From assembly GCA_048939245.1 (NCBI GenBank), contig JBHLPR010000018.1, positions 1 through 39,127 of the forward strand: DNA of 39,127 nucleotides, given 5' to 3'. Below, piece by piece: positions 71 to 18,126 of this stretch; the stretch's first letter is position 1; every line of letters starts with the position of its first letter. The translations under genes were made by a program, and so were the position numbers. Below the pieces are notes generated by a model. That model did no database searches. It was given only the letters and a program-made list of their open reading frames with translations, and had not been told where the DNA came from. The DNA comes from Promethearchaeota archaeon. Lineage in GTDB: Archaea > Asgardarchaeota > Hermodarchaeia > Hermodarchaeales > Hermodarchaeaceae.

Positions 71-165
71 CCATCCTCCTCTTAGAACATTTCATAATGC
101 TGCTGAAATAACAGCCTTTTTATCACTTCCACAACAAAATTACTCAGAGTTGGAGGGTTAAACTC

Positions 166-1770
166 CTGCAAAAAGAACTACTTCTCTTCTTTCTTTTATC
201 CTGGAGTCTCTATTTACCAATTCTCCAAGATTCCTATAATGTAGGAACTTGTTATCCACTGATAGAAGATGATGCTCATCTAGCGCCAGCTATTATTTGG
301 GAAAAGTCCTTCTCCCATCAATGGGGTTCTTGGGGGTGGATTGGCCATGAACTTCAAGATGGCAGCTTTGTTATTGCAGGAATTCATCCACCTGGGGGTT
401 GTTATGATTGGTGTGTGTATCCTGGTTGGATAATGCGAATCACCAATGACGGAAGCTTACGATGGTATCAATTGATAGAGAACTATTCTTCATTTTATTC
501 AACACGGTTACTCAGCATAGATTCATCTTCTTTTCTTCTAGCAGGTGTGGGGCAAATATACGGATTATTTCCCGAACTTGATCAATTTATTTCGCTTCAT
601 TGGATAGACAATGAAGGAAACTGGTTCAGAAACGTTACTTTCAACTGTTGGGATAATTGCTGGCTCGGAGATATTATTCCACTCCAAAATGGAAGCTTAA
701 TCGTTATACTATCTGGGTGGAAAGCAAATCGCGCTCTTTGGTTAGGTGCGGATGGTTCCTTGCTATCGAATCACACCTATGCTCCAATTCGCCTTAATTT
801 TAGATGTGCCCATGGCTGTCAGGATGGAGGATTTGTCGTGGTCGGTGAAAATCATACCTCTCAACCAGTCTCTCTCTCAATAATACGTGTAAACGGATCA
901 GGTTCACTGCTATGGAAATGTGATTATACAACTGAATTTAACTTACAAGCTCGTCATGTTTGCGAAGACGGTGAAAGCGGTTTTCTCGTAGTCGGAGAGA
1001 TGGGTAATGAAACTACAAGTCCTCCAACCTCTCTTTGGTTAAAACGAGTTGATGCTTTTGGAAACACTATTTGGACTCTTCCTCTCCAAACCTCTTCAAT
1101 TGACAGTGTATCCGGTATTACAAAGACGATAAGTGGGGATTATGTTATCTCTGGTAATCGAAACGGAATTGCATACTGCTGGCGAGTAAATAATCTGGGT
1201 GACATTGTATGGGAATCAGATTTTGGGGGTGACAAAAATGTGGTCTTTGCTGACATCATCACATGCCAGAATGGTGATTACGTAGCTATCGGGACTGATA
1301 ACACCCTTTCCTCTAATCCGATGTCCTTGGTGCGTCGCTTTGATGAACAAATGGCTCCGACATCCCCTACGCTTTTCAACGTTTACCTTCCGCATCCTTT
1401 CCCTCACTTTCTCCTCACCTGGTCTACTTCTTCTGATATTGACGGAACTGTTGTTGGTTACCGCCTTCAGATATCACCTTCGGCTACTTTTTCTAACAAT
1501 GTTACCAGCCTATACCTAACTTCGAATTCCACCTCTATTCTGCCTTCAGATCATCACTTGTTATATTATCGCGTCGCAGCTATAGATGATCGAGGAACAT
1601 TTAGTTACTGGAGCAATATCCTTCTCATCAACTTTGATGAGCTAATCCTGTTGTACAATGTAATACTCGCCACCACAATAGGCATTCTAGTCGTTGTCAT
1701 CATATTAACGAGTTTTATTTTTGTGCGGTACAAACAAAAGAACAAACATCAAACTAGGCGAAATCTATGA
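166..1770 (+). CDS. Cell-surface/secreted protein: signal peptide, beta-propeller-like repeats, FN3-like domain, C-terminal membrane anchor
   Basis: Repeats of the type DGGFVVVG / SGDYVISG / NGDYVAIG followed by RVDAFGNTIW. FN3-like segment LTWSTSSDIDGTVVGYRLQIS...YYRVAAIDDRGTFSYWS. Hydrophobic C-terminal helix with basic tail. The frame is open from 112; a CTG at 166 after GGAGG (152-156) adds a signal-like N-terminus. The ORF track start is 415. Confidence 0.7.
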   Translation: MQKELLLFFLLSWSLYLPILQDSYNVGTCYPLIEDDAHLAPAIIWEKSFSHQWGSWGWIGHELQDGSFVIAGIHPPGGCYDWCVYPGWIMRITNDGSLRWYQLIENYSSFYSTRLLSIDSSSFLLAGVGQIYGLFPELDQFISLHWIDNEGNWFRNVTFNCWDNCWLGDIIPLQNGSLIVILSGWKANRALWLGADGSLLSNHTYAPIRLNFRCAHGCQDGGFVVVGENHTSQPVSLSIIRVNGSGSLLWKCDYTTEFNLQARHVCEDGESGFLVVGEMGNETTSPPTSLWLKRVDAFGNTIWTLPLQTSSIDSVSGITKTISGDYVISGNRNGIAYCWRVNNLGDIVWESDFGGDKNVVFADIITCQNGDYVAIGTDNTLSSNPMSLVRRFDEQMAPTSPTLFNVYLPHPFPHFLLTWSTSSDIDGTVVGYRLQISPSATFSNNVTSLYLTSNSTSILPSDHHLLYYRVAAIDDRGTFSYWSNILLINFDELILLYNVILATTIGILVVVIILTSFIFVRYKQKNKHQTRRNL

Positions 1771-1945: not shown

Positions 1946-3493
1946 TTGCCAAAAGGTTTAAGTGTATGCCGTTGGGACGACAAGGTAGGTCTACGTGTTG
2001 TGGGCGTTTATCCGCGTAACCTTGAAGTCTCTGAGGACGATATGCTCCGTGTCTTCACAGCCCATGCTATGGGTAAACCTGAAGCCGGTTTTCTCACCAT
2101 GACCCTCGAAGGGACGAACCTGGCAGTGAGTAGTTTCTATACGGGAATTCTTCGTGGGCGTGATCAGTTTTGTATCATGTTGTTTATGGATTTGGAGGAG
2201 GAGCCTCGGGCGTATGAAGAGGGGTTGACGCTTGCATCGAGTGAGATTGTGGAAAATATTGGTGAACCAGAATTTGTGGAGTATCTGGGTGAGGTCTTTG
2301 AGAAGCTGAAGCGGATGGTGGAGCTGTCTGTGGAGCAGCGGCTTGCCAAAGTGTTCGTGGATCAGGAAACTCGGTTACTCATGCATAAATTGGCTCGGGG
2401 AGGGATTCCAGCCGAGGAGTTGCGGGAGTGGCTTGAGTTGCAAACGGGAAAGCATTACCCAGATTTGGGACTTGTGACCTTGCCACTTTTACGTAGTGGA
2501 CTTGTGGAAGAAGACTGGATTAATGCAGTGTCCGATAACTGCGTATTTTTGGTCAATGATCTCTTGGGTGCGCGGTTTCCACCAGAACAATCGCTGAAAT
2601 TAGCAAAGGGTGGCGGGTTGAACAAGGAACAGTTCCGTGAATATGAAAACCGTGTAAAAAGTTTCTTTGAAGACTATCAGTGGACCGAAGAAGACACGAC
2701 TATGATTGGTCAATTGCTTCTCGATCCTGATATTTACGATGTGACAAAGACGCTACGTCGGAAGATTGCGCATAAATCCGAATTAGTTGGAGTGGTGGAA
2801 AAGGAAGCATCATTGGATAATGTACTGCGGCGTTTGGAGCAGTCGCAAGTCATTACGAAGATGGGTGCAGATTCTGTTGAGGTTTCTGCCCAAGATGATC
2901 CGTTGATTGTGCTTTCCTCGGATGTGCATTTTGAATCCTTCTTTCCGGAGTTCTTGGTGCTGCGGATCCAAGAGCGTTTAGAGGCTAAGGATATCCACCC
3001 AGATATTGCCAAGCGGCACTTAGAGCTTCTTAGTGAGACCTATATGCGTATGCGGGAGAAGATGAAGGAACGTAAGAAGCGGAAGAAGGAAGAGGGTGAA
3101 GAAGAGCTTCCTGAAGTTGAAGCGGAAATGCCAGCTCCTCCTGAAGTCACGGAAGCTGAACCTCCAGAAACCGCTGAACTGCCTGCTGTTGACGAAAAAG
3201 AGGCTAAACGAATCCAGAAGGAAGAGGAGAAGAAGCGGAAGGAAGAAGAAAAACGCCTTAAAGAGGAAGAAAAACAGAAGAAGAAGGGAGAGGAGAAAAA
3301 GCATAAGGAAGAGGAGAAGAAGCGGAAGGAAGAGGAGAAGCAGAAGAAGAAGGAAGAGGAACAAAAACGCAAAGAAGAAGAGAAGCGACTAAAAGAAGAG
3401 GAGAAGAAGCGGAAGGAAGAGGAGAAGCAGAAGAAGAAGGAAGAAGAAAAGAAAGAAACTGCGAAGAAAAAGAAAGAAAAGGACTCCTCTTAG
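1946..3493 (+). CDS. Asgard-type uDENN/longin-like protein with probable winged-helix domains and a charged E/K helical tail
   Basis: The N-terminus GLSVCRWDDKVGLRVVGVYP resembles the uDENN/longin beta1-beta2 start. Two wHTH-like segments end in LLRSGLVEE and LEQSQVITK. C-terminal KEEEKKR repeats. GGAGG at 1932-1936 lies 9 nt before the TTG start. Confidence 0.65.
   Translation: MPKGLSVCRWDDKVGLRVVGVYPRNLEVSEDDMLRVFTAHAMGKPEAGFLTMTLEGTNLAVSSFYTGILRGRDQFCIMLFMDLEEEPRAYEEGLTLASSEIVENIGEPEFVEYLGEVFEKLKRMVELSVEQRLAKVFVDQETRLLMHKLARGGIPAEELREWLELQTGKHYPDLGLVTLPLLRSGLVEEDWINAVSDNCVFLVNDLLGARFPPEQSLKLAKGGGLNKEQFREYENRVKSFFEDYQWTEEDTTMIGQLLLDPDIYDVTKTLRRKIAHKSELVGVVEKEASLDNVLRRLEQSQVITKMGADSVEVSAQDDPLIVLSSDVHFESFFPEFLVLRIQERLEAKDIHPDIAKRHLELLSETYMRMREKMKERKKRKKEEGEEELPEVEAEMPAPPEVTEAEPPETAELPAVDEKEAKRIQKEEEKKRKEEEKRLKEEEKQKKKGEEKKHKEEEKKRKEEEKQKKKEEEQKRKEEEKRLKEEEKKRKEEEKQKKKEEEKKETAKKKKEKDSS
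3217..3480 (+). repeat. Intragenic purine-rich tandem repeat encoding (KEEEKKR)n
   Basis: Exact 50-nt duplication at 3308-3357 and 3395-3444 (period 87 nt), plus shorter copies of gaagaggagaagaagcggaag. Confidence 0.9.
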
Positions 3494-3513: not shown

Positions 3514-4182
3514 TCACTTGTTCAAGGTTTGCTGACGGTTTGCTGCACTAATATCCCGAGCCGTTTCCCAGGTTTTTCGAACAATATCCGGAAACGTTTG
3601 ATGTGTTTGAATCCAAGTGCTTAGAAATCGTCGCGTTTTTGGATCGCTAGGGTATCCACTTCCAAAGTCTCCATAGCGCTGATGATATTCGCTGATTCGT
3701 CGATCACGATGTACTTTGGCAACGATTGATGCGGCGCCAACAATGGGGTAGGTTGAATCTGCTTTATGCTCACTGATAACCGTTTTTGGTGTGTTTAACT
3801 GTGCTGAGATTGTGCGACCATACCGTGCAGCATTTACATCAGAGGCATCGACATAAGCAATATCCCACCGTAAACGATTCAAAACCTGTGCCATCCATTT
3901 TGCCTCTAAAACATTGAGGCTGTGCTTTTTCTGCCGTTCCTCGTCAATTGTTTTTGCACTTACTTCTAACACTTCAATTTTGGAAGCCAGTTGGCGAATT
4001 CGGTGTGCAAGCAATTCACGACGTCGAGGAGTTAGTTGTTTTGAGTCTCGGACTCCCCATTCACTAAGTGCATCTTCTTGAGAAGCAGTTATCACAACCC
4101 CTACGATTACTAGCGGGCCTATAACGGGTCCTCGTCCAGCCTCGTCAACACCAGCAATTTGTTGCGTCAATCCTAACACCAA
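3514..4182 (-). CDS. rnhB: Ribonuclease HII
   Basis: GVDEAGRGPVIGPLV, DSKQL, KAD..YP.V.AASIVAKV and DFGSGYPSDPKT motifs. Confidence 0.97.
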   Translation of the reverse strand: MVLGLTQQIAGVDEAGRGPVIGPLVIVGVVITASQEDALSEWGVRDSKQLTPRRRELLAHRIRQLASKIEVLEVSAKTIDEERQKKHSLNVLEAKWMAQVLNRLRWDIAYVDASDVNAARYGRTISAQLNTPKTVISEHKADSTYPIVGAASIVAKVHRDRRISEYHQRYGDFGSGYPSDPKTRRFLSTWIQTHQTFPDIVRKTWETARDISAANRQQTLNK

Positions 4183-4265
4183 CTTCGATAATTCAACTGT
4201 TCCGAAACCATTAACTGGTGCTCAACCTTATTAGTTCCTACCTAGTTTGCTTGCTTGTGGCATAC

Positions 4266-4550
4266 ATGACAGAATGTAAATACCCAGAAATATGGCTTAG
4301 CATCCTCGATGGTAAGTTTCGTGTCTCTTCGCGACTTCCTCCACCAGCACAAGTTCCAGAGGATTTTAGTTGTCTTACTCCTGAGGGTGAAACCATGCCG
4401 ATTTGTGTTTCGCCACTCTATGAATCGATTCACGATGCTAAGGGTCGTGCAGCAACGCTCCAAGCGGATCTCCAAGAACAGGGGTGCAAGGTGCTCTTTT
4501 TCTTCGAACTACGCCCGGCAATTGTCGGTGATCCTCACGCAAACCGCTAG
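4266..4550 (+). CDS. Small hypothetical protein (94 aa)
   Basis: ATG at 4266 and globular-looking sequence, filling the gap divergent from rnhB; overlaps the DedA ORF end by 113 nt. Confidence 0.45.
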   Translation: MTECKYPEIWLSILDGKFRVSSRLPPPAQVPEDFSCLTPEGETMPICVSPLYESIHDAKGRAATLQADLQEQGCKVLFFFELRPAIVGDPHANR

Positions 4551-5304
4551 GTTCCTCATTAGCTTCTGTTAATTCATCGTTTCCTGCATTCTGTTCTTTT
4601 CGAGCACGCCGACGAATAATAATGCGATATAAAATAAAGACGACCAGAAAAATGATGAGGAGGATTAAAATTAGAGTTTCTAACAAATCAATCATTTCAG
4701 CTAAATTTACGAATCCTACACCAATTATCCAGCCTAAGAGGCCTAGGACCAGATAACGAGGTAAAGTACCAAGGAATGTGAATACTGCAAATTTTTTTAC
4801 ATCTGCTCGAATCGCACCATACAGAAGCGAGACGACAGAAAGTGGGATAATGGGGATGGCACGTGCGGTGAACAGGTAAATTTCATCGCGTGAAGATTTC
4901 TCCATGTTCTTGCGCATATATTCAATTTCTTCTAGTGATGTTCCAAGGTATTTACCATATCGCTCGATAATCGGATACCCGCCAAAAAATGCAATTCCGT
5001 ACCCAAAAAAGGAACCAACTGTGGCGGCAAGAGCTCCAACAAACATTACACTGAATAGGATAACTAAGATTGCCTGCAGTGGGTCCAATCCTAAGGTTAG
5101 AATGAATCCTGCCGCCATTGGAACAAGTGGGGAGGGAAGTGGGGCAATGAATGTTTCAATCATGACACCAAGAAACACGCCGAGTGGTCCTAAGGCTACA
5201 ACCCATGAAATTAGGAGCGCAATAATGCCATCTATCCATGCATCAAAGGCTTGTAACCAGGCGATAATCGTATCAATGATCAATGGAGGTTCCCTCAGAA
5301 GCAA
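4438..5304 (-). CDS. DedA/VTT-domain membrane protein
   Basis: ETFIAPLPSPLVPMAAG, G...GYGIAFFGGYPIIERYGKYLG, ARAIPIIP and F..FTFLGTLPR motifs. The true start may be the TTG at 5283. Confidence 0.9.
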   Translation of the reverse strand: MLLREPPLIIDTIIAWLQAFDAWIDGIIALLISWVVALGPLGVFLGVMIETFIAPLPSPLVPMAAGFILTLGLDPLQAILVILFSVMFVGALAATVGSFFGYGIAFFGGYPIIERYGKYLGTSLEEIEYMRKNMEKSSRDEIYLFTARAIPIIPLSVVSLLYGAIRADVKKFAVFTFLGTLPRYLVLGLLGWIIGVGFVNLAEMIDLLETLILILLIIFLVVFILYRIIIRRRARKEQNAGNDELTEANEEPSGLREDHRQLPGVVRRKRAPCTPVLGDPLGALLHDP

Positions 5305-5330: not shown

Positions 5331-5678
5331 CTATTCTCCTGGATATTTCTTCATGATTTCTTCCAGTGATGGAAACTCGGGGTCATCGACAATGGCAATG
5401 GTTCCATAACGACCGGCAGATAATTCCATCTCACCACGAAACGTCTTGACGAACCCATTTTCAACCTCGACGACTACTCCTTCATCCACTTTGTCAATGT
5501 CGTCATTCCAAAGGGATAATTTGATAGTACCCGTATCATCACCTGCCTGGGCGGTGGTTACACGGGCTTTACCATAACGTGTTTGTACGTCCCGAACGGG
5601 CTCTAAGGAAAGGATGCGTAACCGGATATTAACACTCCGGGATGCAGAGGATAATTCGTGAACTTTCATTTCAAACAA
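5331..5678 (-). CDS. Single OB-fold ssDNA-binding protein (archaeal SSB/RPA-like)
   Basis: GDDTGTIKLSLWND, VVEVENGFVKTFRGEMELSAGRYG. Confidence 0.9.
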   Translation of the reverse strand: MFEMKVHELSSASRSVNIRLRILSLEPVRDVQTRYGKARVTTAQAGDDTGTIKLSLWNDDIDKVDEGVVVEVENGFVKTFRGEMELSAGRYGTIAIVDDPEFPSLEEIMKKYPGE

Positions 5679-5772
5679 CCTACATAATAAAAGAGATTTA
5701 CCAAGGATGTATTAAAGCACACTTTTAAAACTTGTAGGAACGCTGGATTTTCAGAAACAGAAGGGTTCAGTT

Positions 5773-7500
5773 ATGCCGGTAACAGCTGCGACCCCATTTC
5801 AAACCCTCAGTGAGGTTTCTGAGGCGATTATGGGGACCACTAAGCGCTTAGAAAAAATGGATATCGGCGGGATTTTCCTTTCAAAACTTTCTTCTGAGGA
5901 GATAGAAGTCGCTGCCTTACTTCTTATCGGTCAGCCTTTTCCTCGAACTAGTCAACGCTCCCTTGCACTTGACTGGAAGGCACTTCATCAGATACTTCAA
6001 GAATTGTTACAACCATCTCCGAAATTATTACGTGATTTATTTGCACAATCTGGTGACATCGGCGAAGTCGTATATCAGCTGTACCTGCAATCCGGAACTA
6101 TTAAACAATCAACTTTATTCACAACAGCTCTAACCATCCGCGGTGTGCATACAACATTTTCCGAAATCGCTGATGCTCAAGGTCCTGGATCGCGAAAACG
6201 AAAAACCAGTCTTCTCCGGGCATTATTTACGCGTGCAACGCCGCTGGAGGCCAAATATCTTGCTAAGCTTCTTGTCGGGGATCAACGCATCGGGTTCAGC
6301 GAAGGCATGCTTGAAAGCACGATTGCCCGAACACTCGAATTACCTCTTGATCTCGTTCGCCGCGCTAATATGCTCACCGGAAATATCGGGAAAGTAGCAC
6401 GCATCGCTTTCAGTGAAGGGGTAAAGGGACTTAAGAAGGTGAAATTACAGGTATTCATTCCCCTACTACCAATGCTGGCAGCACAGGCGGAAGACGTTGA
6501 GGATGCATTGACTATTCATGATGGGCGTTCAGCATTTGAAATGAAGCTGGATGGTGCCCGTGTCCAAATCCATCTGCAGCATCAGAATGGACAAACATTA
6601 ATCCGAATCTATAGTCGACGTCTTACAGATGTGACAACTAGTTTACCTGATGTTGTTACAATGATTGATGACCAAATTGAAGCCCAAAGCGGCATTCTTG
6701 AAGGGGAGGTCCTAGCAGAGGGGCCCGATGGACGTCCCTATCCTTTTCAACATCTTATGCGACGTTTCCGTCGGGTTCGTAATATTGAGGAAATGGTTCG
6801 TAAAATTCCAGTTAAATTGTATCTCTTTGACTTGCTTATGCATGATGGTGAAATACTAATTGATGAATCCTACGAAAAACGAAGACAGCGTCTAAATATG
6901 GTTCGGGGTCAAATTCCCCTCGTTGAGCAATTAGTGAGTTCAAATTCCGGAGAAGTCACTGCATTTTTTGAGAAGGCGATTGAATCGGGGCATGAAGGGC
7001 TTGTCGCCAAAAGACTAGATAGCCCCTACCAACCCGGTATACGCGGAAAAGCATGGTTGAAAATTAAACAGAGCATGGAAACCCTGGACCTGGTCATCAT
7101 TGCCGCTGAATGGGGAACAGGTCGACGACATAAATGGCTCAGTGACTATCATCTCGCTGCACAGGATCCAGATACAGGCGAATATCACATGCTTGGAAAA
7201 ACTTTCAAGGGGCTAACGGATGCAGAATTCGAGGATATTACCCAACGCCTACTTGAACATAAAATCGAACAGCATCGTGGAATTGTCACCGTCCATCCGC
7301 GGCTTGTCGTCGAAGTCGAATATGATGAGATTCAGCGGAGTCCAACATATAAGTCTGGGATGGCACTGCGGTTTGCCCGAATCAAACGTTTAAGATATGA
7401 TAAGACTCCACAAGACGCTGATACAATTCAACGTGTTCAGGAACTTTATGACACCCAATTTGATCGCAAGGCTTCAACCAACCAGGTGGGTTGCAGCTAG
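5773..7500 (+). CDS. lig: ATP-dependent DNA ligase
   Basis: Motif I EMKLDGARVQIH, EGEV, LFDLL, EGLVAK, WLKIK and ALRFARIKRLRYDK. Confidence 0.97.
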   Translation: MPVTAATPFQTLSEVSEAIMGTTKRLEKMDIGGIFLSKLSSEEIEVAALLLIGQPFPRTSQRSLALDWKALHQILQELLQPSPKLLRDLFAQSGDIGEVVYQLYLQSGTIKQSTLFTTALTIRGVHTTFSEIADAQGPGSRKRKTSLLRALFTRATPLEAKYLAKLLVGDQRIGFSEGMLESTIARTLELPLDLVRRANMLTGNIGKVARIAFSEGVKGLKKVKLQVFIPLLPMLAAQAEDVEDALTIHDGRSAFEMKLDGARVQIHLQHQNGQTLIRIYSRRLTDVTTSLPDVVTMIDDQIEAQSGILEGEVLAEGPDGRPYPFQHLMRRFRRVRNIEEMVRKIPVKLYLFDLLMHDGEILIDESYEKRRQRLNMVRGQIPLVEQLVSSNSGEVTAFFEKAIESGHEGLVAKRLDSPYQPGIRGKAWLKIKQSMETLDLVIIAAEWGTGRRHKWLSDYHLAAQDPDTGEYHMLGKTFKGLTDAEFEDITQRLLEHKIEQHRGIVTVHPRLVVEVEYDEIQRSPTYKSGMALRFARIKRLRYDKTPQDADTIQRVQELYDTQFDRKASTNQVGCS

Positions 7501-7528: not shown

Positions 7529-10500
7529 CTAGCTGCGAAGCCGAATTTCATTTGACGCTGAGATCCATCGGGGTCCGAGGGTTTGATTGAATAAGGCAAT
7601 GTAACTAGCTTGGTCACTGACTACGGCAACAATTTCGCCTTGATTTCCGTAGGTGGGCGCGATAAGAACCTCTTCTCCATCACGCGAGCCACCATAAAAC
7701 TCCATTTTCGGATTATTCCAAATCCGAATATTTCCTTGTTTTAAGAGCTTTTGAGCACTGGCTAATTGTTTTTCCCCATCAAGTGTGGTAATGATATGAA
7801 TCCGATTTTGAGGTTGTACTTCACTCAATTCAGCAACAGGAACTTCGTCAAATGTAGGATAGACTAAAGTTATGGTCTCACCGATTCTTCGAAACATATC
7901 TAAAAGATGGTTCTGGATTCCTTCACAAGTCACAATCCGCCATGTTCGCTCTGCCTCTGCGGGTTCCATTTTGGTAAGAGTATTCCACAAGCCGATAAGA
8001 ATTTCTTCGGTTTGACCTGCTTGGGTTCTGAGACGGTTCAGGGTAGGTTCTGTCTGAGCGGAGAACAGTTGCAAAGAATTAACAGCAGTTGTTTCAGCAG
8101 TTTTCGCTCTGGCTGTGACTTCTTTTGTCAAAGTCTGATACTCTGATTTGAATGTTTGGCGTTCTTTGCTTAAGGTTCGGCTAATCCGTCGACCCGTTTG
8201 TTGTGTTTGAGTGGTCAATCCATCTTTAGCATTATCTAGAATTTGGGTAATGCTAGCAACTAGTTTGTCATTTTTTTGTTTGAGATTGGTGACTGCGGTT
8301 CCCTTGAAGCTTTGGAGCCTTTCTTCCGTTCGCCGTAAACCATCCTGAATGGCGCGATTTAATCGGGTCTCGGTTAAACTCAGTGTCTTGGTTTGATCTT
8401 GTAGTACATTTTCAACTTGCTCTTCTATTGCTGTTTGAAAGTTTTTCTTGTTCTCTTCTATCCCCGCGATGATGTTTGATAAGAGCTTGGAGATATCACC
8501 TTGTGAACTCTTCAACGTTGAGATAAGTGACTCTGAGAGCTGATCTGAGGATGCTGAAATTCGTTCTCCAAGAGTTGATAGATTTTCTCCTAATTGGCCA
8601 ATGATGGTCTGTGTTTTAATTTTGAGTGTTTCGAGTAGTGTTTGATAAGAAGTATCATTCTTTGTAAGCGTTGTATTTAGGGTAGCATTTATGGCGGTAT
8701 CAATCTCGCTCATCTGCTGTTCAAGCTCTTCTTTACCTTCATTAGTGACGCGTTCTAACTCATCAAATAGTTGGTTTTGTATTTCTCTAGATTGTTCGGC
8801 AAGGGATTGGAAAGTTGAAGAAGTCTCTTTGCTTAATGCTATTTGTTGAGTATTGATTGTGTTGAGCAGATTTACCTTATTCAATTCGATTTGTTCAACT
8901 AGTTCAGTGTCAATCTTTTCGCTGGTTTCTCCAATTCTTTCTATTAGCTTTGAAGTCACTGTTTGTAATTGGACTAGCTCTTGTTGTAGGGTGGAGATAT
9001 AATCCTCTACTTCTCCAGAAAGAGAGCTAGCAAATTTTTCTAAGAGCTGATTCATTGCCGTTCTTTGTTCGTCCATACGTATGGCACAAGTTTGCCCGAC
9101 TTCTTCAATTATGGACTGAGATTTCGGAATCTGCTTTTCAGAAAAGGCTACTAATTTCGTTTGGATATTGTTTATTTCTGCAATTATTATGGTCCCCTGC
9201 TTTTGTATCAAATCTTGGACATTTTTCTTCAAGTTATTGACTCGATCTTCTTGTGTTTGCAATTCGGTTTCTATATTTTCCACAAAAGTATTCGCGGATT
9301 CACGAATAGTTACAAGATTTTTGGTCGTAGCCTTTTCGATTTCCTCTGCCATTGTCTCTATTTTCTGTGTCGTTGAAGTTTTTTGAGTACTTATATCAGT
9401 CCACAGCGAATCGAACAGAGTTTGGGTTTCTTCAAGTTGTGCAAAACAGTCCTCTTGCATTTCGGTAATACTTTGAGAGACTTGCTCGTAGATTCCACTT
9501 TTTTCACGGTCAAATTCCTGAACAGCTGTAGTTAATAGGTTACTTGTATCGTCTTCAAAATTCGTCAGGTTTGTTTTTACATTCACTATGGCTTGGTCGA
9601 CCGCAGTATCCGTGGCGGTATTTAAGGCTGTTAAATTACCCACTACTGCTGAGGAATAGTCATCAATGGTTTTGGTGACTGGTAACCAATATTTTTCAAC
9701 CAGAGTGCGCGTATTCGCATCAAATTTTTTCACTGTGTCGCTGAGTTTCTTGGCCAGTTCTTCTGTGGAGTCTTTAATTGGGGGGCTTTGTGTAGTTGAA
9801 AACTCCCGGAGTTTTGGTGGAAGCTGAGTTCGAAGTTGTTTCTCTAATATAGATTGAAACGCCGCCTCTGCCTGAACCTGTGGTGATATTTGATCATCTG
9901 CGACTCTCCTTTGATATTTTTCTAACATCTCTTCGCCTGAATTTTTCAGCAGACTAGTAAGTTCGGGTTTCAAAGAGTTCGAATAATTCGTTTGCAGGGG
10001 CGTCTTCAATAAGGACTCAAATTCAGTGGTTATTTCTTTTATGTTGCGTTTGTGCTGACGGTCGAGCGCTGATTGATATTCATTAAAGATTTTCAAAAGA
10101 TTCATGGGTTGTTTGTTTAAGTACTGTTCAGATAGTTTTGAGAGAAAGGCGTTGGGTAAAGTTTCAAGATTTTGATCGCTGGATTGAAAAATCTTCGATA
10201 TTTGCTTCTCTCGGTTAGTTTGTTTTGTGAGCCTCATCTTGAAACTTTGTAAAACAGTTTCCAGCTCTTTTGTGGTTTTTTCGCGAACAGGTTTGGTTTG
10301 TTTGGATAAAGCAGTTTTTAAAAGTGCACGGAGTTTGTCAAACGTGGTTTGCAGTATATCATTGATTTGTTTCTCCCGCTTTGCTTGCCGCATCACTTTT
10401 GTTTTGCAGCTACGCAAAATTGGTTTCATTTGAGTAATAAATGATTTAGCGATTAGCTCATTGTGTTTCGTGATTTGTTGGTTGTAGACGTTAACAAATT

Positions 10501-12922
10501 CATCTCGAGCGAGATTAAGTGCTGTATCAGATTGTGTTTTCTGTAGATCCTGGCGAGCTCCAAGGAATTCAATAAAACTTGTTGAGATATCACCTAATTG
10601 TTTCTCCAAGGTGTTTATAATCACTGAATTAACATCATTGAGTTTAGAAGAAGTTAGGCTCTTTTGTATAATGGATGCAGCGGTGCTAGCTACTCTTGAT
10701 TTAAGCGCGGCTTTTTTCTTTTCGAAGGTTGTTTGATATCCATTGAGGGCTGCAAGCCCATATACGGGAATATCTTCTTGCAGAATTTTATTCAAATTCG
10801 TAATAATTGTTTGATCCCGTTTTGTCAGTTGAGATTTCCAGCTCTTAATTATCCTCTCTACAGCTTTATCTCGGCTGGTTTGGGCTTCAGTAATTGCAGG
10901 TTGATAATTGCTGATTGCGGTTTCGATTTTGAGTATTTGCTCAGCGCGGAGTTTGTCTGCGGTACTTTCTATTCCCTCAGAATATTCCTTTATTATTCTT
11001 TCAAGTTTTGTTAGTTCTTTGTTTAGTCCTGAAGCTGTTTCTCCGACTATTCTTTTCAGTGCTGCCTCGAAGGCACGGACTTTCTTTTCAATGCCTTTTT
11101 GCTCTTTGGTAGCTTTAGCTAGGTTTTCTTTGCCAGACTGCCTTATGGTGCTTTGTGCTTGAGTTAATCGGGTTTCACTATACTCTCTTAGTTGGTTTTC
11201 TGTTGTTTCAAGCGCTTTGATTGCAGTGGAGGCTTCTGATTTTAGGAGTTTTTGCATTTGTTTATTTAGAGAACGATGTTGTTCTTCTTGTGAATTCATT
11301 TTTGTTTGAAAGTCTGAGATAAAGGATTCCGCAGTTTTTTGTACGGTTTTTAATCGGCGTTTGAGTCGTCTTCCGACTTGATCAGCGATGGACTTGAAAT
11401 TGGTAGCAAGATTTGTTTGTTGCGTGTTGCTTTCTTCGATTAAGGTCTGAAGAAGAGTCTGCACTTCTAGGAGCTGTGCTAAATACTTGTCACGCATTTC
11501 AATGCCTATGCCTTGCTTTGCCTCTTCGAGCAGTTTTTCATGTTCTGTTTTTACTTGTTCTATCAGGGTGGATAACGAAGTCTGAATTTTGGAAAATTGT
11601 GAAAAACTCAGGGATGAGGGAGGCCATTCTGTTATAGTAGTTTCGGCTTCTTTGTGTAGACTTTGTATCTCTGAACTATTTTGCGCGTGAGCTTCTTTTA
11701 ATTTTTCAAAAAGGCTTTCGACGATTTGTACCGAGGTATCACGGCTGGATTTGATTGTGGAATCCATGGTTGTTGCGGCATTATCCGTGTGCGAAACAAG
11801 TCGGCGATTTTCTTTTTGTATCGTTTTATCTAACTGTGTGAGAATGTCTTCCAATACCTGGGTTCGTTGTGTCCAGGTGTCACGGAGTTGAGTCGAAAAA
11901 CTTTGAGTATGTTTTGTTAAATTTTGTCTTGTTTCTTTTTGTAATGTGTCTAACGCTTTTTGTGTCTCTTGATTGAAGGAGGTGATATCATCTGTGAGGG
12001 TTATAGCGGTTTCTTCAGTAATTTCAGATATTCCCTCTTTTTGTGATGTACTTTCAGAAGTTATGGATTTTATTCCTGAATCTATATTACTTTGAATACG
12101 AGAATTAGCATTCTGTAGTTGAGTTTGGACCTGTTGGATGTTGGTGACCACTTCTGCTGAAATTTGATTTGCTGTAGCGCTAGCCCATTGTTCTGTTTCT
12201 TCTTGGTATCCGTTGATTGCTTTAATTGTATCATCTAACACCTGCTTTTGAGCCTCATCTAGCTGAGTGGCTCCTTCATCAATGAGATTACTGAGAGCTT
12301 CTTGAATTGATGTAATCTGGTCTGAAATTTCGTTGACACTGGATGATGCAACTTCACTCAAGGCTTTCTGTAAGTTTTCCGCTACGTTACTCAATACAAT
12401 ATTAGTTGCCATGGCTGCCTCGTTTAAAGCGATTCCCTGTCTTTCGTTTAGGTTTTCCAAGGCATTCCGAGTCTGCCGAATCATTAACTGCAATTCATCA
12501 TGTATTTCGCCTAATGCTTTAGTTTGGATTTGCTGCAGTTCCTTCCAAGATTTCTGAGTGTCTTTTGTGAAAGCTTGGACTTCCTTGGCCAATTCCTTGT
12601 AAGGTGCAAATGCTCGATAACGAGAAACAACACCGGGTAAGGCTTTAATGAGTTGTTGTTTCTCAAGGTATTCGATAGTGCTTCTAGCCTTGACCATGGG
12701 AATTCCCGAATAATTACTAATCTCATCCGCAGTAAGCTGACCCATTACCAATAATACGGTATATACTCGGCTCTGAGATTCACTTAATTTGAACCGGCTT
12801 TGTAATGCGGTTAACAACTCAGCTGGAATCTCCATCGGGATGGCGCATTGAGCGGTATTCTCTTGCCCTGCTGAAGCAGGGGGAAACTCGGGATTACCTT
12901 CTTTTGGAGTCATTTTTGTCAC
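7529..12922 (-). CDS. Giant TrmB-like protein: N-terminal wHTH, about 1500-aa coiled-coil/helical region, C-terminal PLD-fold TrmB effector-like domain
   Basis: LSESQSRVYTVLLVMGQLTADEISNYSGIPMVKARSTIEYLEKQQLI is a TrmB-type HTH. The middle is Q/E/K/T/S/L/I-rich and nearly free of Pro/Gly. The C-terminus WRIVTCEGIQNHLLDMFRR...SRDGEEVLIAP...YIALFNQ resembles the TrmB middle domain. Confidence 0.8.
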   Translation of the reverse strand: MTKMTPKEGNPEFPPASAGQENTAQCAIPMEIPAELLTALQSRFKLSESQSRVYTVLLVMGQLTADEISNYSGIPMVKARSTIEYLEKQQLIKALPGVVSRYRAFAPYKELAKEVQAFTKDTQKSWKELQQIQTKALGEIHDELQLMIRQTRNALENLNERQGIALNEAAMATNIVLSNVAENLQKALSEVASSSVNEISDQITSIQEALSNLIDEGATQLDEAQKQVLDDTIKAINGYQEETEQWASATANQISAEVVTNIQQVQTQLQNANSRIQSNIDSGIKSITSESTSQKEGISEITEETAITLTDDITSFNQETQKALDTLQKETRQNLTKHTQSFSTQLRDTWTQRTQVLEDILTQLDKTIQKENRRLVSHTDNAATTMDSTIKSSRDTSVQIVESLFEKLKEAHAQNSSEIQSLHKEAETTITEWPPSSLSFSQFSKIQTSLSTLIEQVKTEHEKLLEEAKQGIGIEMRDKYLAQLLEVQTLLQTLIEESNTQQTNLATNFKSIADQVGRRLKRRLKTVQKTAESFISDFQTKMNSQEEQHRSLNKQMQKLLKSEASTAIKALETTENQLREYSETRLTQAQSTIRQSGKENLAKATKEQKGIEKKVRAFEAALKRIVGETASGLNKELTKLERIIKEYSEGIESTADKLRAEQILKIETAISNYQPAITEAQTSRDKAVERIIKSWKSQLTKRDQTIITNLNKILQEDIPVYGLAALNGYQTTFEKKKAALKSRVASTAASIIQKSLTSSKLNDVNSVIINTLEKQLGDISTSFIEFLGARQDLQKTQSDTALNLARDEFVNVYNQQITKHNELIAKSFITQMKPILRSCKTKVMRQAKREKQINDILQTTFDKLRALLKTALSKQTKPVREKTTKELETVLQSFKMRLTKQTNREKQISKIFQSSDQNLETLPNAFLSKLSEQYLNKQPMNLLKIFNEYQSALDRQHKRNIKEITTEFESLLKTPLQTNYSNSLKPELTSLLKNSGEEMLEKYQRRVADDQISPQVQAEAAFQSILEKQLRTQLPPKLREFSTTQSPPIKDSTEELAKKLSDTVKKFDANTRTLVEKYWLPVTKTIDDYSSAVVGNLTALNTATDTAVDQAIVNVKTNLTNFEDDTSNLLTTAVQEFDREKSGIYEQVSQSITEMQEDCFAQLEETQTLFDSLWTDISTQKTSTTQKIETMAEEIEKATTKNLVTIRESANTFVENIETELQTQEDRVNNLKKNVQDLIQKQGTIIIAEINNIQTKLVAFSEKQIPKSQSIIEEVGQTCAIRMDEQRTAMNQLLEKFASSLSGEVEDYISTLQQELVQLQTVTSKLIERIGETSEKIDTELVEQIELNKVNLLNTINTQQIALSKETSSTFQSLAEQSREIQNQLFDELERVTNEGKEELEQQMSEIDTAINATLNTTLTKNDTSYQTLLETLKIKTQTIIGQLGENLSTLGERISASSDQLSESLISTLKSSQGDISKLLSNIIAGIEENKKNFQTAIEEQVENVLQDQTKTLSLTETRLNRAIQDGLRRTEERLQSFKGTAVTNLKQKNDKLVASITQILDNAKDGLTTQTQQTGRRISRTLSKERQTFKSEYQTLTKEVTARAKTAETTAVNSLQLFSAQTEPTLNRLRTQAGQTEEILIGLWNTLTKMEPAEAERTWRIVTCEGIQNHLLDMFRRIGETITLVYPTFDEVPVAELSEVQPQNRIHIITTLDGEKQLASAQKLLKQGNIRIWNNPKMEFYGGSRDGEEVLIAPTYGNQGEIVAVVSDQASYIALFNQTLGPRWISASNEIRLRS

Positions 12923-13034
12923 TCAACTTCAATATTGGTTACTCATGTAGGATTTCTACCATCTACTAATATCTGAGACGCTAATTGTTTCTCTCCACCT
13001 GCTATAAGGGTGACGTGTCGAAAAATGCGTGTCC

Positions 13035-16098: not shown

Positions 16099-18126
16099 AT
16101 GACTCTTATCAATGATGACGAAATCCTCTATACTCCTGATGAATTAGCATTTCGTAAGCAAGTAAGGGAATTTGTTGATAGAGAAATCAAACCAATAAAC
16201 ACTCAGATTGAAGAACGAACATTCAGTCATCGTCAGCTATTTAAGAAACTTGCCGATGCAGGTTTGTCCGGCTTATTAATCCCTGAAGCATACGGTGGAT
16301 CCCAACAACCCTTTGTTTACCAATTAATTGCAGGTGAAGAAATTTCTGTTATTTCTCCCTCGACTACGATGATGTTTGGTGCCAGCTGTACGCTCAGTGC
16401 GATTCCCATACTCCGGTTTGGCACTGAAGAGCAAAAACAGAAGTATCTTGTTCCTTTAGCAAAAGGTGAGAAAATTGGGGCTTTAGCGATTACTGAACCC
16501 GCTGTGGGCAGTGATACAGCTGGTATGGAAACACAAGCTGTTTGGAATAAGAAAAAAGGGTGTTGGATTCTAAATGGGGAAAAACGCTACATCTCCAATG
16601 GTAGCATTGCAGACCAAATAGTGGTTTTTGCCATTACCGATCCTACAGTAGATAGCAAGAGTGGGATGTCTGCTTTCATCATCGAAACATCATGGAAAGG
16701 CTTCTCTGTTGAACGTGATTTCACGCTAATGGGGCGCTCTGGTGCTACCGTCTCTCATATCAAATTCGATAACATGAAGATTCCGAAAGAAAATCTCCTT
16801 GGAAAAATCAATCAAGGATTTCTCATCCTCATGGATGAGCTAGATTCAGAACGAATTGGAATTGCGGCAGAAGCATTAGGTTGCATGCGGACCCCATTCC
16901 AAATCGCTGTAGATTATTCTCAGCAACGCATCCAATTTCACAGACCCATCTCTCGCTTTGAAGGTGTATCTTTCAAGATTGCCGATATGGCCTTGAAGAT
17001 GAGGGCCGCTCGGTTATTGACCTTATCTGCAGGAAGAATGGTTGACAAGGGGCTTCCCTGCACAAAGGAAGCGACCATGGCTAAACTCTTCGCTACAGAA
17101 GCAGCAGTTGAAGTATGTGATCTAGCAATCCAAATCTGTGGTGGAGCTGGATATGTGAAAGACTACTATCCCTTGGAACAATACTATCGTGATGCTCGCC
17201 TAGGAACCATCGGTGGTGGGACTTCGGAAATTTTACGATACTTGATACAGCGGGAGGTCTTCATTGAACAGAAACGTGAAAAAGCTCAAGACACAGTTTC
17301 AACTGATCTAAGTTCAATTGCCTTCACCACGCTTATGTCTGCGGTTCCCAATGGTTTTCGTCCCGATCGTGCTGAAGGTGTTTCAGCAAAAATCCAATTC
17401 CTTTTCACCGATGAAACCCCTTGGCTACTAACCATCAAGAATCAGAAATGTAGTATCGATCAAACGGAAATCAAAAATCCCATGATGACTGTAAAAACCG
17501 ACTCAACTACATGGCGACGTGTTCTCCTTGGACAAACTGACGCCATGCAGGCGTTAATGGCTAAGCAAGTCACGATTGATACTGATGATATGGATTTGTT
17601 AATGAAATTTGCTCGGATGTTTCGATTTACTCCTCAAATATTCGAAAGGGTTCGTCCAGAATCCAAAGTCCCTAAGAAAGAGAAGAAAGGTCAAACTAAA
17701 TTCATTTTGGGGAAAAGCTTAGATGAAATTAGAATTGGTGAAAAAGCGGAAGGGTCAATGAAAGTCACCAAAGATCATATTGAATGGTATGCAAAGATGT
17801 CTGGTGACTATAACCCCTTACATATGGACGACGAGTATGCCGCAACGACGATGTTTGGCCGTCGCATTGCCCATGGACCCGTTGGCGGTGCATTGGTCGC
17901 ACGAGTAATTGGGATGCAATTACCAGGATTGGGGACACTCGCATATAATATGAAGGTGAATTTTACAGCTCCTGTCTTTCCTGGTGATGAAATAAAAGCG
18001 ATTATTAAAGTGACAGAAAAGGTTCCTGAAAAGAACCTTCTCAAGCTTAGCTTCACCGTAATTAATCAAAAAGGGCTAGAAGTCATGAACGGGTATGCTA
18101 ACGTACTACCCCCCATTAAAGACTAA
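16099..18126 (+). CDS. Fusion protein: acyl-CoA dehydrogenase + SCP2 lipid-binding domain + MaoC (R)-specific enoyl-CoA hydratase
   Basis: ACAD motifs AITEPAVGSD, LNGEKRYISNG, QICGGAGY, YRDARLGTIGGGTSEI. SCP2-like region FRPDRAEGVSAKIQF...DAMQALM...LLMKFARMF. MaoC motif SGDYNPLHMD...FGRRIAHG...FTAPVFPGD. Confidence 0.9.
   Translation: MTLINDDEILYTPDELAFRKQVREFVDREIKPINTQIEERTFSHRQLFKKLADAGLSGLLIPEAYGGSQQPFVYQLIAGEEISVISPSTTMMFGASCTLSAIPILRFGTEEQKQKYLVPLAKGEKIGALAITEPAVGSDTAGMETQAVWNKKKGCWILNGEKRYISNGSIADQIVVFAITDPTVDSKSGMSAFIIETSWKGFSVERDFTLMGRSGATVSHIKFDNMKIPKENLLGKINQGFLILMDELDSERIGIAAEALGCMRTPFQIAVDYSQQRIQFHRPISRFEGVSFKIADMALKMRAARLLTLSAGRMVDKGLPCTKEATMAKLFATEAAVEVCDLAIQICGGAGYVKDYYPLEQYYRDARLGTIGGGTSEILRYLIQREVFIEQKREKAQDTVSTDLSSIAFTTLMSAVPNGFRPDRAEGVSAKIQFLFTDETPWLLTIKNQKCSIDQTEIKNPMMTVKTDSTTWRRVLLGQTDAMQALMAKQVTIDTDDMDLLMKFARMFRFTPQIFERVRPESKVPKKEKKGQTKFILGKSLDEIRIGEKAEGSMKVTKDHIEWYAKMSGDYNPLHMDDEYAATTMFGRRIAHGPVGGALVARVIGMQLPGLGTLAYNMKVNFTAPVFPGDEIKAIIKVTEKVPEKNLLKLSFTVINQKGLEVMNGYANVLPPIKD

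Follow-up and report, generated by a model that had tools for sequence, protein, structure and literature searches.

What might a protein do that carries the two terminal domains of a TrmB-type regulator at either end of some 1,500 residues of helix? The question is raised by a giant gene on the minus strand of contig JBHLPR010000018.1 (positions 1 to 39,127; assembly GCA_048939245.1, Promethearchaeota archaeon). In this 39,127-nucleotide (nt) stretch of DNA, hereafter the window, a single uninterrupted frame of 1797 codons occupies 7529..12922. A first-pass annotation, made from the sequence without database searches, had read it as a TrmB-like regulator stretched by a very long coiled coil. 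Our analysis suggests that the window gene belongs to a family that spans the Asgard archaea and descends from DNA-binding proteins of the TrmB/TrmBL2 type. For architecture and function taken together, we consider this best explanation to have about an even chance of being right. We hold the architecture, a TrmBL2-like head on a fold-back rod of 11-residue (hendecad) helix, with high confidence. The function that we favour, an ATP-independent, DNA-anchored strut or tether, is put forward tentatively.

Residue numbers throughout count from the GTG codon at 12922, three codons before an ATG at 12913. The ATG is the most likely real start, giving 1794 residues (aa), because the orthologues begin at a Met equivalent to codon 4 of the GTG-numbered frame. 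Public data contain approximately 30 orthologues, full-length or partial, at 31–92% identity to the window protein. They come from metagenome-assembled genomes of Promethearchaeota, Thor-, Hod- and Hermodarchaeota, and their names go no further than ‘helix-turn-helix domain-containing protein’ or ‘sugar-specific transcriptional regulator TrmB’. Since these sequences align with four single-residue indels in the rod, a chance frame can be set aside, and 7529..12913 is a real, conserved gene. Across the gene (window 8000–13000), the plus-strand AT skew is strongly negative (−0.22 to −0.37), which is the footprint of A-rich minus-strand coding (Lys, Glu, Gln, Thr and Asn codons) and not a replication signal.

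The N-terminal TrmB domain claimed by the first-pass annotation was borne out. The TrmB winged helix-turn-helix (wHTH) family of Pfam (PF01978) matches aa 40–107 at 41.4 bits against a gathering score of 25.6, which places the domain in that family. A profile of aa 4–340 matched TrmBL2 chains (5bpd) at E 7.7e-11, spanning the wHTH and the first helix, and TrmB at E 2e-6; the only chains ranked above TrmBL2 were those of apolipoprotein A-IV, which matched the rod part. At the other end, aa 1655–1797 had no sequence-level match in searches of Pfam and of PDB sequences, hence the identity of this domain (the C-domain) is given by fold comparison only. When an AlphaFold model of aa 1650–1797 (pLDDT 83) was submitted to Foldseek, the top seven matches were TrmBL2 chains (best 5bpd, E 1.8e-7), followed by PLD-fold proteins (FAM83, Nuc/NucT, Zucchini, PLD3) and TrmB. 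The C-domain in an orthologue model was also superposed on TrmB 2f5t (VIA Z 15.6, root-mean-square deviation 2.4 Å over 128 residues) and on TrmBL2 (VIA Z 13.3). The TrmB-type PLD-fold domain that had been proposed for this end was therefore recovered as well. A motif search found the HKD catalytic motif (HxKx4D) of PLD superfamily enzymes nowhere in the window protein. The C-domain has no counterpart of the second, sugar-binding subdomain of TrmB: it ends after ~140 aa, and the structural matches cover only TrmB residues 107–242.

Collectively, the wHTH and the catalytically dead PLD-fold domain are the two halves of a TrmBL2-like head. This head belongs to the TrmB family, and its layout most resembles that of TrmBL2 (Thermococcales; PDB 5bpd, 5bpi, 5box, 5bqt), in which a wHTH and a helix lead to one PLD-fold C-domain that has no sugar-binding subdomain. 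TrmBL2 is both the best TrmB-family match of the N-terminal profile and the best Foldseek match of the C-domain model; however, it has ~264 aa and a linker of ~30 aa, whereas the linker here has ~1,540 aa. With TrmB itself, a sugar-sensing regulator (PDB 3qph, 2f5t), the window protein shares the wHTH family and a counterpart of the PLD-like N-subdomain of the TrmB effector domain, which is the top VIA match, but not the sugar-binding subdomain. Nor is the window protein an orthologue of any named member, because its scores for the NCBIfam equivalogs are all far below the cut-offs: 33.2 bits against 600 and 16.4 against 650 for the TrmB/TrmBL1 models (NF040851, NF047390), and 27.7 against 530 for TrmBL2 (NF041141), whose proteins have ~264 aa compared with 1794 aa here.

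The ~1,540 aa between the terminal domains are helical, and the AlphaFold model of an orthologue is helical throughout. As the first-pass annotation had stated for this linker, the window protein contains no Walker A/B pattern in a motif search and no membrane segment (maximum 19-residue hydropathy 1.05); it also has no Pfam SMC match. Thr, Leu, Glu, Gln and Ser are abundant in the rod, whose hydrophobic residues recur with a period of 3.67 residues (11/3), for which the global power was 7.0 compared to a maximum of 1.5 among 200 shuffles. The same period was found in 12 other family members. Because there is almost zero power at 3.5 in the rod, it is a hendecad and not a classical heptad coiled coil; what stands of the earlier coiled-coil description is the helical rod, not a generic or heptad coiled coil. 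When the rod was folded modulo 11, two positions were ~70% large hydrophobic and one or two more ~30%, and the hydrophobic seam lies at positions a, d/e and h (~3 in 11), dominated by Leu/Ile. A seam this narrow is more in keeping with a pair of packed helices than with a face that binds lipid. The hendecad phase is unbroken over aa 200–430, 451–720, 1045–1170 and 1177–1640, and is irregular only in the proline-containing part (720–1045), indicating two arms of ~600 residues each (Table 1).

Would these arms extend end to end or fold back on each other? Both possibilities had been raised before; the antiparallel hairpin is the one that gained support, and an extended rod of ~1500 aa is disfavoured. 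The support is indirect, but we think it very likely that the rod is a hairpin in which residue i packs against residue ~1754−i, because the arms are equal, conservation is mirrored, conserved loops sit at the midpoint, indels are central, and an AlphaFold model breaks at the predicted apex. The smoothed conservation of aa 125–715 mirrors the profile of the C-arm (Pearson r 0.63–0.73 raw, 0.52–0.62 detrended), and the peak, at i+j = 1753–1755 with a half-width of ~10 residues, ranks first among 1216 positions. The mirror rule also places the W-P-P loop (432–446) opposite an invariant block, the most conserved one of the C-arm (~aa 1301–1326). For other paralogue groups, the expected sum was fixed beforehand as (end of wHTH) + (start of C-domain) − 6. 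The global mirror maximum was at 961 (expected 964) in an 11-sequence group of ~1000 aa and at 893 (expected 892) in the Lokiarchaeal group, while two further small groups showed strong local peaks at the expected position.

Conserved loops mark the same midpoint in proteins of different lengths. A D-K-x-G-D-K-K-K-F-S-L-G loop starts at residue 637 where the predicted apex is 640 (a 1339-aa group) and at 868 where it is 876 (an 1812-aa group). A K-R-G-S-A-W-K loop is centred on 447 against a prediction of 446 (a 963-aa protein) and on 490 against 489 (1050-aa proteins). The two arms have therefore grown in lockstep, by +231/+241 and +44/+44 residues, respectively. Length variation across Asgard orthologues, which the first-pass annotation had singled out, follows the same geometry: in 23 orthologues of 1788–1814 aa, the four single-residue indels are the only ones in the rod, and all indels longer than 1 aa among 28 syntenic orthologues compared fall in aa 588–1266, mostly 656–1043. 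The distal part holds most of these multi-residue changes among syntenic orthologues, and each of the shorter ones is without one central block (758–1031, 656–1043 or 588–1266). In the full-length AlphaFold model of a 1122-aa syntenic orthologue, the helix breaks at 531–534 within a low-confidence zone (521–549), and the mirror rule predicts an apex at 535.5. A second pair of breaks, 345–347 and 722–724, sums to 1069 (expected 1071). Structural alignments of this model to MarR-like and PLD-fold chains span residues 28..970 and 96..1114, that is, both termini, and the ends therefore lie together in that model. A two-chain complex prediction with aa 4–340 and aa 1420–1797 scored 0.12 against a mark of 0.32 and is given no weight on either side of the hairpin question. 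With a rise of 0.15 nm per residue, the length would be ~90 nm for the regular arms and up to ~115 nm for the rod including the distal part.

Table 1. Features of the giant gene in the window (residues numbered from the GTG at 12922).
Feature	Residues (aa)	Window position	Strand	Basis
Coding sequence of giant TrmBL2-like protein (1794 aa from probable start ATG 12913)		7529..12913	-	orthologue starts
TrmB-type winged helix-turn-helix, DNA-binding half of head	37-110	12593..12814	-	Pfam PF01978 and TrmBL2 profile match
N-arm, hendecad helix (continuous register over 200-430 and 451-720)	115-715	10778..12580	-	periodicity/phase
Invariant W-P-P loop motif (only clear break in N-arm)	432-446	11585..11629	-	alignment, phase, orthologue model
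Internal repeat, copy A	460-710	10793..11545	-	hhalign
Distal/apex part, proline-punctuated (irregular register, least conserved)	716-1039	9806..10777	-	phase, conservation, indels
Basic tip (apex K877/P878 at 10289-10294)	840-910	10193..10405	-	charge, mirror geometry
Mirrored Q-x-x-REKQI motifs	846-853 and 901-908	10364-10387 and 10199-10222	-	positions sum to 1754
C-arm, hendecad helix (near-continuous register, length equal to N-arm)	1040-1640	8003..9805	-	periodicity/phase, conservation
Internal repeat, copy B	1139-1389	8756..9508	-	hhalign
C-terminal PLD-fold domain of TrmB/TrmBL2 type without HKD motif	1655-1797	7532..7960	-	AlphaFold model and fold comparison

The family is widespread in Asgard archaea, to which all named members of the giant family belong. 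A profile of the C-domain collected 407 clusters at 50% identity, and almost every one of the 150 proteins listed (93–1907 aa, truncated fragments included) has the domain at its C-terminus. Ten family members were sampled, and TrmB wHTH matches were found in eight (four above the gathering score) and apolipoprotein-like helices in seven. The family is present in 249 of 301 Asgard genomes sampled and in 82 of the 90 high-quality ones; most genomes that carry it have one to five matches, and the genome of the window (88% complete) has one. No functional description was known to the first-pass annotation, and full-text literature searches likewise found no description of the family.

How might such a protein work? 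We propose that the helix after the TrmB-type wHTH, short in TrmBL2, has grown to ~1,540 residues, and that it would fold back at K877/P878 to give arms 115–715 and 1040–1640 and a proline-punctuated distal part. The resulting rod, ~90–115 nm long, would hold the terminal domains together at its base and present a positive tip on an acidic shaft. TrmBL2 belongs to the nucleoid-associated proteins and stalls SMC (PMC11840125). Going by kinship and anatomy, the head of the giant protein would sit on DNA as TrmBL2 does, the rod would be an ATP-independent strut or tether of fixed length, and the basic tip might contact a second polyanionic surface, either a membrane or another DNA segment, such that the protein would organise or position the nucleoid instead of sensing sugar. 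Strut or tether is the best functional reading, possible but tentative, because of the TrmBL2-like head, the residue-exact rod length, the charged tip, and the near-universality of the family with several length classes per genome; we infer a chromosome-organising or tethering role from the kinship of the head to TrmBL2 and from the basic tip.

In its predicted topology, the window protein resembles SMC, Rad50 and MukB: both termini form a head, the middle is an antiparallel two-helix rod, and arm length is conserved. MukB, JetC and condensin chains were among the Foldseek matches of the full-length orthologue model, with poor TM-scores. However, the window protein has no Walker A/B ATPase, hinge or zinc hook, its rod is a hendecad and not a heptad, and it is not homologous to these proteins. 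If our reading is true, these near-universal, multi-paralogue rods of ~100 nm, each carried by a chromatin-protein head, would add a new class to the architectural elements of the nucleoid, with an SMC-like topology but without the motor.

Several points weigh against this account. DNA binding by the giant protein is predicted by homology only. The full-length model of the 1122-aa orthologue has low confidence (pLDDT 59, pTM 0.33), and for the 1812-, 1339- and 800-aa groups, which contain few or very similar sequences, the mirror test produced no peak where one was expected. The basic tip is not universal, being absent at the predicted apex of P0039, P0087, P0092, P0100 and others. Moreover, the distal part, including the tip, is least conserved and is missing from some syntenic orthologues of 1122–1575 aa, which makes a conserved tip function doubtful for the orthologous lineage as a whole. 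Lastly, the gene neighbourhood gives no specific functional link, because it is the whole block of ~20 kb, with mixed metabolic and replication genes, that is syntenic.

The same block bears on whether the giant protein is, instead, a conventional transcription factor whose head recognises specific operators, for example those of the neighbouring aminotransferase/aldehyde dehydrogenase/acyl-CoA genes, the rod serving only to modulate it. The window gene lies between an aminotransferase gene and a convergent DNA ligase gene; beyond the ligase gene come genes for SSB-like OB and VTT-domain proteins and for RNase HII. Neighbour gene order holds down to 31% identity, and the order of aminotransferase and giant gene was found in all syntenic orthologues examined, which, together with membership of the TrmB family, speaks for this explanation. 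But synteny of an entire block is not specific, paralogues are located in unrelated neighbourhoods, the C-domain is without the sugar-binding subdomain, and the TrmB and TrmBL1 equivalog scores are far below cut-off. A rod of 1,540 aa that is kept to the residue is also hard to explain as a linker. We therefore regard a conventional regulator as unlikely.

Could the rod be extended after all? Two chains without a fold-back might pair in parallel, giving a rod of ~225 nm with the DNA-binding domains at one end and the PLD-like domains at the other. In TrmB and TrmBL2, the helix after the wHTH is the dimer interface (PDB 3qph, 5bpd), and the low confidence of the full-length orthologue model leaves room for such an arrangement. 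Nevertheless, a parallel dimer leaves unexplained the mirrored conservation, both at i+j = 1754 here and at the corresponding sums in other groups, the loops at the exact midpoint with lockstep growth of the arms, the central confinement of indels, and the AlphaFold break at the predicted apex. We consider it improbable.

Equally improbable, in our view, is a coat of the apolipoprotein or phasin kind, in which 11-residue amphipathic helices open over a lipid body or some other hydrophobic surface, which the wHTH links to DNA. There is a precedent in bacteria, where PhaF and PhaM coat polyhydroxyalkanoate granules and tie them to DNA. The rod shares its 11-residue amphipathic periodicity and a sequence-profile similarity with apolipoproteins (A-I, A-IV, E, apoLp-III) and phasins: it has sub-threshold Pfam Apolipoprotein and Phasin matches and profile matches to apolipoprotein A-IV and A-I chains, and some paralogues exceed the Pfam Apolipoprotein cut-off. 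However, the window protein itself scores 55.4 bits for Apolipoprotein A1/A4/E (PF01442) against a cut-off of 90, and it carries DNA-binding end domains. The seam, at ~3 of 11 positions and dominated by Leu/Ile, is narrow, and the charges are unlike those of class A lipid-binding helices. Length is residue-exact across 31–92% identity, whereas repeat-based coats usually vary, and mirror-image conservation implies helix–helix packing. The lipid-binding, apolipoprotein-like scaffold suggested in the first-pass annotation is accordingly weakened.

A different setting is seen in Freya- and Jord-archaeal paralogues, in which three genes lie 1–8 nt apart, the giant TrmB-like gene coming last (L022:1949-9507, L023:1966-11439). 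The first encodes a STAND-type ATPase (AAA_16/nSTAND1) with TPR, of 571–577 aa, and the second a protein of 769–770 aa that is above the Pfam Apolipoprotein and ApoLp-III thresholds. This operon looks like a candidate three-part system. The rod also resembles the tail of ZorA from the Zorya anti-phage system in being a long helical tail of similar composition: PADLOC ZorA models match aa 110–467, at E 4e-15. Even so, it is very improbable that the window protein is a ZorA-tail-like, signal-transmitting rod of a multi-gene defence or signalling system, with a STAND-type ATPase and another rod protein as partners, since single-protein queries found neither operon partner in the 88%-complete genome of the window, the window gene stands alone between housekeeping genes with no ZorB-D neighbours, and the ZorA matches of the protein (25 bits in NCBIfam, cut-off 190) lie in the tail region of the models only, the window protein having no MotA/ExbB channel domain.

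To return to the DNA-anchored strut, its tip deserves a closer description. Net charge of aa 840–909 is +5 to +12 in 23 of 23 orthologues, while the whole rod is net negative, and in the window protein aa 865–904 are the most basic 40-residue stretch of the rod. The two Q-x-x-REKQI motifs would face each other in a hairpin. Basic tips recur in Lokiarchaeal, Hel- and Jord-type groups. The N-arm contains a second conserved basic patch, G-R-R-L-K-R-R-L (aa 517–524; window 11357–11378, the aa 516–522 region); in several orthologues, it competes with the tip for the highest basicity in the rod. One bolder version of the strut, which we think unlikely, is that members of the family reach 50–130 nm from chromosomal DNA to the cell membrane or cytoskeleton by way of this basic tip (also aromatic in Lokiarchaeia), setting how the nucleoid is spaced and positioned in Asgard cells. 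No known organisms are more closely related to eukaryotes than Asgard archaea, whose DNA is organised within large, complex-shaped cells. If true, such struts would be a prokaryotic counterpart of chromatin-to-envelope tethers in the lineage ancestral to eukaryotes.

The idea can be tested, since both cultured species have family members: QEE17539.1 (963 aa) in P. syntrophicum and UYP44989.1 (1050 aa) in L. ossiferum. These cultured Lokiarchaeia members stand alone near ribosomal-protein genes, with aIF5B adjacent in P. syntrophicum and one gene away in L. ossiferum. In a published P. syntrophicum proteome (PMC11284389), DSAG12_03376, annotated ‘TrmB family transcriptional regulator’, is one of the ten proteins with the highest identification scores and has a low normalized spectral abundance factor; in the literature searched, the tag appears in no other paper. 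The 963-aa member carries the same product name, and a link between the two could not be made. A low abundance factor for its score would fit a long protein; DSAG12_03376 is a lead only.

The rod also preserves traces of how it grew. The internal repeat copies A and B are homologous at a gapless offset of 679 residues (hhalign E 2.5e-17, profile dot-plot z 5.3), and the 1122-aa orthologue (P0039), in which gene order is kept, has exactly 679 residues fewer. Its single repeat module is slightly nearer to copy A in the first half and to copy B in the second, a pattern that would fit unequal crossover, whether the event was a duplication or a deletion. Another orthologue (P0207, 1575 aa) had been interpreted as two mirror-symmetric deletions. 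This was rejected and the argument dropped, since inspection showed P0204 (1522 aa) plus a tandem duplication of ~54 aa (~five hendecads) at the predicted tip (P0207 residues ~730–815). Lockstep arms around a conserved tip, together with a 679-aa-spaced repeat that is lacking in one syntenic orthologue, make the family a clean natural case of fold-back rod growth.

Other features of the neighbourhood were recorded in passing. At window 5331–7500 and 3514–5304, the DNA ligase gene, which converges on the giant gene with only 28 nt between the stop codons, is succeeded by the genes for the SSB-like OB protein, the VTT-domain membrane protein and RNase HII. All syntenic orthologues examined share this arrangement, and in a related locus (L017) the ligase and giant genes overlap. 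Near the P. syntrophicum paralogue, too, there is a VTT-domain gene, ~6 kb away (L029:282-1031). At window 16099–18126, one open reading frame fuses acyl-CoA dehydrogenase, SCP2 and MaoC dehydratase domains; most related loci keep this fusion, although the MaoC part is missing from one orthologous locus (L019). Another, at window 1946–3493, encodes 515 aa without a Pfam match. In related loci, a protein of 497–565 aa with no Pfam family on record is found at the same position beside RNase HII, and in four of these loci its gene adjoins an Arf/Ras-like GTPase gene.

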